A stretch of DNA of 64,000 nucleotides. Source: a virus. Location of the stretch: the IMG/VR virus record IMGVR_UViG_3300037264_001603, positions 1 through 64,000 of that record; one strand, written 5' to 3'. The notes beneath the pieces are model-generated. The model ran no database searches, was not told where the DNA came from, and saw only the letters and a program-made list of their open reading frames with translations. The position numbers and the translations under genes are program-made. This document shows, piece after piece, positions 24,814-26,102 of the stretch (its first letter is position 1; each line of letters opens with the position of its first letter).

Positions 24814-25038
24814 ATGGTTAATGGAGTAGTAAAGTGGTTTGATGCTAAGAAGGGATACGGTTTCGTCGTTTCCCCTGAGGTTGATGGTGATGTATTTGTT
24901 CACTACACCAAGATCAAGATGGAAGGCTTCAAGAAGCTGGAGACTGGCGAGAAGGTCTCCTTTGACCTCATTCGCACCCCCGCTGGGAAGCCTCAGGCAG
25001 ATAACGTTGTTCGAAACGGAGTAGAAACACAAGACTAG
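24814..25038 (+). CDS. cold-shock domain protein
   Basis: GVVKWF, KGYGF, DVFVHY; AGGAG SD. Confidence 0.93.
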   Translation: MVNGVVKWFDAKKGYGFVVSPEVDGDVFVHYTKIKMEGFKKLETGEKVSFDLIRTPAGKPQADNVVRNGVETQD

Positions 25039-25042
25039 GGAT

Positions 25043-25071
25043 TTGACAAAAAAGCCCAGATGTCTTATGAT
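25043..25071 (+). promoter_or_regulatory. sigma70-like promoter
   Basis: TTGACA-17nt-TATGAT. Confidence 0.8.
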
Positions 25072-25092: not shown

Positions 25093-25365
25093 GTGGGCAA
25101 TACAACTTACGTGGATTTAGAGATCCTTGCCGATCTCGGAGACGAGTATTTGGTACGCGTAGGCAAGGACGGGTTGAATGCTCTGGTGGAGTTTGATGCT
25201 ACCCTGGTTGTTCGCCATTGGGATGGGGAAAAGCCGGTGGTGCTTGAGCCGTATGGAGATACCGCGGTTCGTACCAGAGAAGATGCCAGAAGTACCAATA
25301 ACTTGGAGAATTTGCCAAACGTAGACGTGGACGAGCTACTCACGTGGCTCGTGACCCAGGAGTGA
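25093..25365 (+). CDS. hypothetical protein with DUF3892-like C-terminus
   Basis: VRTxxDxxxxNNLxNLP; GAGG SD before GTG. Confidence 0.5.
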   Translation: MGNTTYVDLEILADLGDEYLVRVGKDGLNALVEFDATLVVRHWDGEKPVVLEPYGDTAVRTREDARSTNNLENLPNVDVDELLTWLVTQE

Positions 25366-25370
25366 TTCGA

Positions 25371-25499
25371 GTATTAGGTTCTCCCTCCAGGGTATGTGGG
25401 GAATCTTCCCCCGGGCCTTCAGTGCCCTACCCGACCGCGTCTGCGGATACAATGGCCTAAGAACCTAAAAATACATTGTACGGAGGGAAATACACAATG
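25371..25499 (+). promoter_or_regulatory. structured RNA leader (riboswitch-like, SD-sequestering)
   Basis: Seven complementary segments read directly; anti-SD TCCCTCC pairs with GGAGGGA. Confidence 0.6.
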
Positions 25500-25772
25500 G
25501 GTGTACTAAAGCACGACGGAACTGTAGTCAATCTTGACGCGCTTGATTCCGTGTTCGATACCAATGCCAATGGCTTTGGTCCTGAGACCACGAGCAACCC
25601 TGACATGGTAGCAGGCGTCAAGGCGAATATGGCAGGCATGCCTTGGACTGGTGGATACAGCCTACCTACGGGTAATCGCTCTTCCAGCACTGGGCTTCCG
25701 CATGTTAGCCTCGGTCGAAGTGGCAAGCTCCCAGCGGGCAACGCTACTCTGGCTGGCGTAACGACTCGATAA
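25497..25772 (+). CDS. Gly/Thr-rich small protein
   Basis: GGAGG SD before ATG 25497. Confidence 0.7.
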   Translation: MGVLKHDGTVVNLDALDSVFDTNANGFGPETTSNPDMVAGVKANMAGMPWTGGYSLPTGNRSSSTGLPHVSLGRSGKLPAGNATLAGVTTR

Positions 25773-25829
25773 GCGCAGTCAACTTCATTACGGCTGGCCA
25801 AGGGCAATCCTTGGCCCGCCCCAAGATGC

Positions 25830-25862
25830 GGGTGTCCCCCCAAAGGGGGGCATCCTTTCTTA
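25830..25862 (+). terminator. intrinsic terminator
   Basis: GGTGTCCCCCC-AAA-GGGGGGCATCC followed by TTTCTT. Confidence 0.7.
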
Positions 25863-25901: not shown

Positions 25902-26102
25902 ATGGAAGATCTAGTACTAGGCGCGCTTGGACTAGTCTCCGGTGCAATTCACTGGGGCCTTTCTAACGCACTACCCCTAGCAGTCGGTGCAGTACTTGGT
26001 GGCCCTCTCGGTCACGCCGCTCTTGGAATGGTTGGCGACGTCCTTAGCAGAACTAAGGAAGTAGTTGACTCCATCGGCTCTGCCATTTCTGGCAAGAAGT
26101 AG
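25902..26102 (+). CDS. glycine-zipper membrane peptide
   Basis: AGGAGG SD; GxxxG-rich hydrophobic helix. Confidence 0.7.
   Translation: MEDLVLGALGLVSGAIHWGLSNALPLAVGAVLGGPLGHAALGMVGDVLSRTKEVVDSIGSAISGKK

Follow-up and report, generated by a model that had tools for sequence, protein, structure and literature searches.

The window analysed here is a stretch of 64,000 nucleotides taken from a 77-kb IMG/VR viral record; since the estimated completeness of that record is only 26%, the window represents a fragment of a jumbo phage. A gap at positions 25366-25496, between an upstream open reading frame (ORF; 25060/25094-25365) and the ORF of a 91-amino-acid protein (p91; 25497-25772), holds the leader RNA described herein. 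The features of the locus, given in window coordinates, are as follows.

24814-25038, + strand: gene for a phage cold-shock-domain protein (Csp; Pfam CSD, 6.9e-24; synteny by tblastn)
25043-25071, + strand: sigma-70-like promoter, TTGACA, 17 nt, TATGAT (11 of 12 consensus positions matched)
25094-25365, + strand: upstream ORF ("orf101"), of no known family, with a TGA stop at 25363-65, 7 nt before P1
25372-25382, + strand: 5' strand of helix P1 (family register 25372-78, TATTAGG; window-lineage register 25374-82, TTAGGTTCT)
25383-25388, + strand: anti-Shine-Dalgarno (anti-SD) CCCUCC in the P1/P2 junction, nearly invariant over 75 leaders
25390-25432, + strand: P2 domain (P2, 25390-94/25428-32; P2a, 25398-402/25407-11)
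25413-16/25424-27, + strand: P2b, with loop CUUCAGU at 25417-23
25435-25446, + strand: P3 hairpin, CCGC-GUCU-GCGG, which covaries
25448-25480, + strand: P4 hairpin (stem 25448-54/25474-80), whose loop carries the 3' strand of P1 and an A-rich stretch
25482-25488, + strand: Shine-Dalgarno (SD) sequence GGAGGG(A), 9 nt before the ATG
25497-25772, + strand: downstream gene for p91, a 91-amino-acid protein rich in Gly, Thr and Asn, with 104 "hypothetical" homologues
25497-25511, + strand: start codon and codons 2-5 (GGT GTA CTA ...), with almost frozen synonymous sites
25830-25861, + strand: hairpin and T tract resembling an intrinsic terminator, after p91

The gene order SLT, MetAP, Csp, (ORF), leader, p91, pseudo-dUTPase and dUTPase is kept in the related loci as far as each contig reaches. 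In particular, tblastn placed the Csp gene upstream of the leader in all related loci that reach far enough upstream, and the neighbouring cold-shock gene to which the original prediction had drawn attention is to that extent universal. Neither the upstream ORF nor p91 matched a Pfam or PHROG family. The homologues of p91 share 59-98% identity and are all labelled "hypothetical"; because it is conserved to this degree, p91 must matter to these phages. Its charge is near neutral, and its AlphaFold2 model has a mean pLDDT of 55 and is mostly coil, without secondary structure. A profile search of the PDB revealed no relative of p91, and a search of the ESM Atlas gave sub-threshold leads only. An exhaustive profile search added four more distant small homologues (P0105-P0108, with 36-50% protein identity), which were not found in the viral collection. 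The p91 profile also matched weakly, in seven stretches (E 1.2e-4), a protein of 1021 amino acids with 15 PASTA domains (P0109); the match is probably a compositional resemblance of Gly/Pro-rich segments.

The promoter at 25043-25071 probably drives the upstream ORF, the leader and p91. The start listed for the upstream ORF as a frame of 101 amino acids, ATG 25060, falls within the -35/-10 match of this promoter; GTG 25094, with GGGAGGA ahead of it, is more likely the start, and matches to homologues of this ORF begin at residues 8-17. At 12 loci that carry no upstream ORF, promoters matching 10-12 of the 12 consensus positions were found 26-100 nt upstream of P1. With promoters standing before either the upstream ORF or P1, the leader is thus the 5' untranslated region (UTR) or the intercistronic leader of a short transcription unit that starts after csp. 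Contigs from three RNA libraries, 100% identical to the window, span Csp-orf101, 25305-25453 and p91; being contigs, they show no transcript ends and may include DNA carry-over.

A long upstream open frame stops near the anti-SD in 63 of the 75 leaders, nearly always 3-20 nt before it, with a mode at -14. These frames have 34-127 codons, about 90-125 in most cases, and a few are cut by the end of the contig. The stop lies on or beside the 5' strand of P1; 13 leaders have it in the stretch from P1 to the anti-SD.

Downstream of p91, a conserved intrinsic terminator was considered and rejected, as such a site was found at only 11 of 76 loci. A second G/C-rich hairpin of 12 bp (GGCTGGCCAAGG / CCTTGGCCCGCC, 25792-25820) stands in the window between the p91 stop and the terminator-like hairpin (25830-55). 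Positions 25902-26102 encode a Gly/Ala-rich, membrane-like small protein of 66 amino acids, which follows p91 at a minority of the related loci only.

The original prediction described a compact, multi-stem 5' leader capable of forming a pseudoknot, and every pairing that it listed exists in the window. TCCCTCC (25382-88) pairs with GGAGGGA (25482-88), and GGGTA (25390-94) with TACCC (25428-32). The smaller stems are GGGGA/TCCCC (25398-402/25407-11), GGGC/GCCC (25413-16/25424-27, with the 7-nt loop CTTCAGT), CCGC/GCGG (25435-38/25443-46) and TACAATG/CATTGTA (25448-54/25474-80). In addition, TTAGGTTCT at 25374-82 is complementary to AGAACCTAA at 25460-68, and ACAATG recurs at 25494-99. The minimum free energy (MFE) structure computed with ViennaRNA for 25366-25505, at -47.3 kcal/mol, is exactly the predicted nested fold. 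Its z score is only -1.67, and 12 of 200 dinucleotide shuffles fold equally well, so the window sequence alone does not make the case. The folding energy, which had been put forward as a check against shuffled controls, thus fails to set the single sequence apart; it is the comparison of relatives that speaks for the reality of the fold and bears out the compact, pseudoknot-capable leader.

p91 was found in 7 viral and 80 metagenome contigs, mostly from sediments. The comparison used an alignment of 75 distinct upstream regions (A2) and a covariance model with 141 positions and 25 pairs, in which P1 is the outer helix; the alignment to this model is termed A3. Scoring 56-136 bits, the model matched every one of the 76 loci for which sufficient upstream DNA was available. 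Each locus has one match, always abutting the ATG; the window holds no second copy, and a single significant copy is found in each of two complete phage genomes (296 and 298 kb). Standard pairs fill 86.6% of the cells of A3, as against 76.6% in column shuffles, and 29 of its 38 pairs have changed on both sides. The covariation score is 0.269 versus 0.136 in the shuffles (reached by 0 of 500), and sliding the partners by 1-3 columns lowers it to 0.05-0.08. None of the 500 shuffles attains any of the five observed measures, and the slid-partner controls are 3-5 times lower. The covariation sought among homologues is therefore present, with compensatory changes in P1, P2, P2a, P2b and P3. RNAalifold independently recovers P2, P2a, P2b and P3. 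The pairs with the highest corrected mutual information are the helix pairs, besides pairs in the SD region that reflect a one-column misalignment there, and a scan for extra tertiary pairs, such as the P2b loop with the P3 loop or with the start of the ORF, detected none beyond the helices. The leader is a real, conserved, folded RNA of about 125 nt before a small jumbo-phage gene.

No deposited phage genome matched the region in a BLASTN search. A scan of a genome collection returned a single match, on a 30-kb contig (WJJK01000141.1) binned into a Candidatus Altiarchaeales MAG, in which p91 is 71% identical and the leader scores 62 bits. Since its SD and promoters are of the bacterial type, this is probably a mis-binned phage contig and offers no evidence of a host.

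In P1, six of the seven pairs show changes on both sides, for example UCUUAGG/CCUAAGA, UCUUGGG/CCCAAGA, UUUCAGG/CCUGAAA and CUUGAGU/ACUCAGG, or UCUUGGGU/ACCCAAGA compared with UCUUGGGC/GCCCAAGA. An alignment-free test, in which the 14 nt before the anti-SD were matched to the region from P3 to the SD, found a stem of at least 7 bp in 61 of the 75 leaders (mean 8.4); with the 5' strand shuffled, such stems occurred in 24% (mean 5.8 bp). One subclade, the L036 type, has a P1 of only 5 bp, CACUU/RAGUG. The 3' strand of P1 lies in the P4 loop, at 25456-62 (CCUAAGA) in the family register and at 25460-68 in the register of the window. The 9-bp pairing of 25374-82 with 25460-68 that had been proposed is present, but its register is confined to the window and its closest relative (L002) and is not that of the family, since it relies on a CCTAA duplication found in these two alone. 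In the family register, 25372-78 with 25456-62, the window has one A.G mismatch.

The duplication, CCTAAGAACCTAA at 25456-25468, gives the 5' tail two alternative partners, again in the window and its closest relative only. A C-to-A change in the 5' strand of the window (TATTAGG, compared with TCTTAGG) weakens the family register.

Changes on both sides were also seen in all five pairs of P2, all five of P2a and all four of P2b. In most lineages the top of P2 is a three-way junction whose 7-nt loop resembles CUUCAGU; in the L004 and L051 types it is one long hairpin. Three of the four P3 pairs have changed on both sides, giving the variants CCAC/GUGG, CCGG/CCGG, CUGC/GCAG and CCCU/AGGG. P4, the TACAATG/CATTGTA hairpin, fared less well: it is present in the window, but it belongs to a single subclade, with 68% of cells paired, the others absent, and no real covariation. 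In the leaders that have it, P4 and the SD helix stack across 1-nt junctions, giving the window a tight four-way junction. The copy of ACAATG at the start codon, suggested earlier as an alternative partner, occurs in only about half of the leaders and is not conserved. Judged by the compensatory changes in these sequences, a three-helix core of P1, P2 and P3 is conserved. Apart from the anti-SD and some of the P2b loop, few unpaired nucleotides are conserved; the junctions and the P3 loop vary.

The anti-SD reads CCCTCC in 71 of the 75 leaders, the others being two CCCCCC, one CCCTTC and one CCCTCT. These four exceptions would produce two wobbles and two C.A mismatches, and the flanking nucleotides vary. 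Every one of the 75 leaders has GGAGG at 7-11 nt upstream of the ATG, read by eye as GGAGGG. A perfect anti-SD for the p91 gene had been predicted, and CCCUCC at 25383-88, in the junction, is indeed complementary to GGAGGG at 25482-87. Because both strands are essentially invariant, this helix cannot covary. Instead, its formation is suggested by the complementarity, by the conservation of a nominally single-stranded junction, and by the energetics. All six pairs of the helix appear in the nested MFE structure of 53 of the 75 leaders, and five of the six in one more; in the other 21, P1 replaces it. Folds in which a helix was forbidden put the value of P1 at -5.5 and that of the SD helix at -7.2 kcal/mol on average. 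The linker from the 3' strand of P1 to the SD has a mean length of 22 nt (range 6-37) and is 60% A, compared with 16% in the rest of the leader.

The constraint appears to extend into the coding sequence. Codons 2-5 of p91 are GGT in 78 of 78 sequences, GTA in 76 of 77, CTA in 73 of 78 and CAA in 45 of 47, whereas the same amino acids later in p91 use all codons at near-maximal entropy (78 distinct sequences). As the synonymous sites of these codons are almost frozen, the pattern suggests that a functional RNA element, an operator or an initiation region, reaches to about +15. A hairpin enclosing the AUG was tried as the cause of the frozen codons and rejected: only the L036-type subclade has a strong one (6 bp), and in the other leaders it measures 3-4 bp, near the shuffled expectation (4.2 versus 3.4 on average). 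In the L036 type (L036-L045, L058, L059, L062, L067, L070, L073 and L078), a 6-bp hairpin, TACAC[CT]/GGTGTA (UACACC/GGUGUA), spans -10 to +9 and holds the start codon in its 3-nt loop. Upstream of ATG 25497 it is RNA structure, rather than coding sequence, that is conserved, which shows this ATG to be the true start of p91.

Along the RNA, the order of elements is the 5' strand of P1, the anti-SD, P2, P3, the 3' strand of P1, the linker and the SD, so that the two long-range helices cross. P1 crosses the anti-SD:SD helix and shares no nucleotides with it, which is most simply read as a pseudoknot: both would form together, and in the P4 subclade P1 would be a kissing contact of the hairpin loop with the 5' tail. 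Alternatively, the two helices might be mutually exclusive states of a bistable switch, with the SD free in the P1 state (on) and blocked in the anti-SD state (off). The nested folds do split, with the SD helix (complete or nearly so) in 54 leaders and P1 in 21, and the energies of the two states differ by a mean of just -1.7 kcal/mol (+/- 4.2 over the 75 leaders). The spacer between P1 and the anti-SD is also as short as 0-1 nt in some lineages. Nonetheless, with no shared nucleotides any exclusion would have to be purely steric, and the linker can span the stacked P1 and SD helix in most leaders. Moreover, the subclade with the weakest P1 (5 bp) has the extra 6-bp hairpin around its AUG, which looks like compensation for the off state. 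As far as sequence can tell, the unshared nucleotides, the length of the linker and the AUG hairpin of the L036 type favour a single compact fold with both helices, and we regard the switch as unlikely.

These facts agree with an SD-sequestering leader whose default state is off; repression and its relief are inferred. We favour, with moderate confidence, a pseudoknotted leader that sequesters the SD and is opened by a protein or by a ribosome event. A stable, pre-organised fold would lock the ribosome-binding site of p91; with this site locked, p91 would not be translated by default, and its translation would need an active opening event. As few unpaired bases are conserved, a protein opener seems likelier than a metabolite. 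Ribosomes terminating on the upstream ORF, on or beside the 5' strand of P1, are the first candidate. Coupling of this kind cannot, however, be a universal trigger, because no fewer than 12 loci carry a promoter in place of the upstream ORF, and the position of the upstream stop beside P1 could merely reflect genome compaction. The second candidate opener is the RNA chaperone Csp of the phage, whose gene lies a short way upstream. Its adjacency is not specific evidence, since it is part of a fully conserved block (SLT, MetAP, Csp ... dUTPase). Csp paralogues bind defined RNA motifs, and CspC selects AGGGAGGGA (PMC9947658); by analogy, such a sequence preference is a lead toward Csp as the opener, and not evidence for it.

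Part of this arrangement has precedents in the MS2 coat-replicase coupling and the T4 e/soc hairpins, in which an upstream sequence about 100 nt away likewise pairs with the ribosome-binding site. As in coupling, a ribosome that reaches the end of the upstream ORF would be positioned on or next to the occluding sequence. Unlike in those systems, the occluding strand of the leader lies inside a conserved multi-helix junction, and the element is kept at the 12 or more loci that lack the ORF. It is conceivable, though doubtful, that the leader represents a new class of phage switch, whose pre-organised junction offers its own SD, within a pseudoknot, a decoy resembling the CCUCC of 16 S rRNA and whose lock is released by a dedicated trigger. 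The trigger might be the co-conserved Csp, acting as a sequence-specific translational activator, or a small molecule. Such a switch would set when p91, as a highly conserved and intrinsically disordered protein, is made in jumbo-phage infection.

That the leader belongs to no known Rfam class, as had been supposed, was confirmed for the window and for ten diverse homologues. Rfam 15 gave no match in the 64-kb window at gathering thresholds, nothing overlapping the element at E values up to 10, and no match in the ten leaders at E values up to 1. A metabolite riboswitch would use the P1/P2/P3 junction and the pseudoknot as its aptamer, and its ligand would stabilize or release the SD helix. 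A multi-stem junction with a pseudoknot, an SD as expression platform, a 5'-UTR position and strong covariation make a profile that is common among orphan riboswitch candidates, and there are H-type pseudoknot riboswitches that also employ the SD strand (PMC11625349). The preQ1-II/III, SAM-II, SAM-V and SAM/SAH riboswitches likewise lie in 5' UTRs, place the SD strand in a pseudoknot helix, have an A-rich strand after the first helix, and control initiation, as the leader would. The leader is much larger, however, with a 75-nt P2-P3 domain between the two strands of the pseudoknot, and differs from all of these in having no conserved pocket nucleotides, no covariance-model match and no association with a ligand or a metabolic gene. 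Its conserved positions are the helices, the anti-SD, the SD and the spacer, which do not include a set of unpaired nucleotides suited to a ligand pocket. The variable top of P2, a three-way junction or a single hairpin by lineage, likewise argues against the riboswitch reading of the original prediction, as do the variable P3 loop and junctions and the association with one gene family without a metabolic link. We therefore consider a metabolite riboswitch quite unlikely.

The T4 gene 32 leader, E. coli rpsO/S15, the alpha operon/S4 and the L20 long-range pseudoknot are autogenous pseudoknot operators with a protein effector. By the same principle p91, like T4 gp32 and the ribosomal proteins, could bind its own leader or initiation region. 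As in these operators, a pseudoknotted leader stands at or beside the ribosome-binding site of a single gene or operon, and the constraint on codons 2-5 is what an operator overlapping the start would impose. The unstructured A-rich linker between the pseudoknot and the SD recalls the gene 32 leader (PMC10690425). On the other hand, p91 is neither gp32 nor a ribosomal protein, and, with no Pfam or PHROG family and no PDB relative, it is not recognisable as the ssDNA-binding protein encoded downstream of leaders of the gene 32 type. It does not look RNA-binding, being a near-neutral protein of no RNA-binding family that is predicted to be mostly disordered, and the SD is here fully paired to a dedicated anti-SD. 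Autogenous control thus appears improbable.

The leader might also be a stable non-coding RNA, a ribozyme or an mRNA-stabilizing 5' structure that merely abuts the gene. The compact fold and tight junctions would suit such a role, and the topology, with the strands of P1 and of the SD helix alternating around the hairpins (P1a, PKa, hairpins, P1b, PKb), bears a loose resemblance to nested double pseudoknots. Self-cleavage, raised as a possibility at the outset, finds no support in a leader without a match to a ribozyme family, a conserved catalytic core or invariant junction nucleotides. There is no match to a tRNA or sRNA family either: ARAGORN found no tRNA in the window, and the 7-nt P2b loop varies at its middle positions (UCA, UCU, CCA, CCU) and is missing in some lineages, so that it holds no consistent anticodon. 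The spacing to the SD and ATG is fixed, moreover, and the anti-SD is invariant while its neighbours vary, which makes a role unrelated to the gene very improbable.

An RNA thermosensor, melting or refolding with temperature and possibly assisted by Csp, is brought to mind by the neighbouring Csp gene, by the sediment habitats and by the cspA mRNA, a known thermosensing leader (PMC9947658). The SD helix, however, is perfect over its six pairs, of which five are G-C; it stacks on P2 and P4 and has none of the mismatches or weak pairs of known thermometers; the sole thermometer match, ROSE_2 with 13.9 bits against a gathering threshold of 65, lies at 25093-25161, outside the element. The thermometer suggested by the original prediction is hence hard to credit. 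Equally hard to credit is temporal control by alternative transcripts as in T4 e/soc, with the SD hidden in long transcripts of the early phase and short, translatable ones made later from a promoter in the linker: the linker is A/T-rich with TATAA-like words in several lineages (read by eye) and the upstream promoters look host-type, yet the linker has no conserved promoter motif and is occupied by the 3' arm of P4 in the P4 subclade, and because a simple hairpin would suffice for hiding the SD, the covarying P1, P2 and P3 would be left unexplained.

Sediment jumbo phages are, to our knowledge, almost unexplored at the RNA level. The leader is a large structured RNA that is well supported, and its output can be read, the SD being the 3' strand of the putative pseudoknot. 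If it is opened by Csp or by terminating ribosomes, it would offer a clean model of chaperone-gated or structure-bridged translational coupling; if by a ligand, a virus-borne riboswitch of a new class. Either way, it gives an experimental handle on the timing and purpose of p91 synthesis. The covariance model can also serve as an annotation marker for this phage clade, and it supports ATG 25497 as the start of p91.

The best reading of the comparative data is that of an uncatalogued, cis-acting 5' leader specific to p91 of a clade of sediment jumbo phages. Occlusion of the ribosome-binding site within a pseudoknotted leader is a known principle; as far as could be tested, the fold, the phage clade and the gene association are new. 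A survey from 2023 mined IMG/VR for 8,495 unnamed candidate structured RNAs, the "DNAVirus_X" motifs (PMC10690425). The leader resembles these motifs in its origin from phage intergenic regions of IMG/VR and in the covariation evidence. No functional description of it was found in that catalogue, and it may be listed without description among the 8,495 candidates.

A further feature was noticed at loci without the upstream ORF (L013-L015, L019, L020, L028, L056 and L088). In these, a G/C-rich hairpin followed by the word CTC(A/G)CAAG(G) is kept 60-130 nt upstream of the region of the p91 ATG, and some ORF-less loci retain a remnant of the ribosome-binding site of the upstream ORF (GGAGGATTAAA). 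The hairpin and its word may be another small conserved element or the scar of a deletion.
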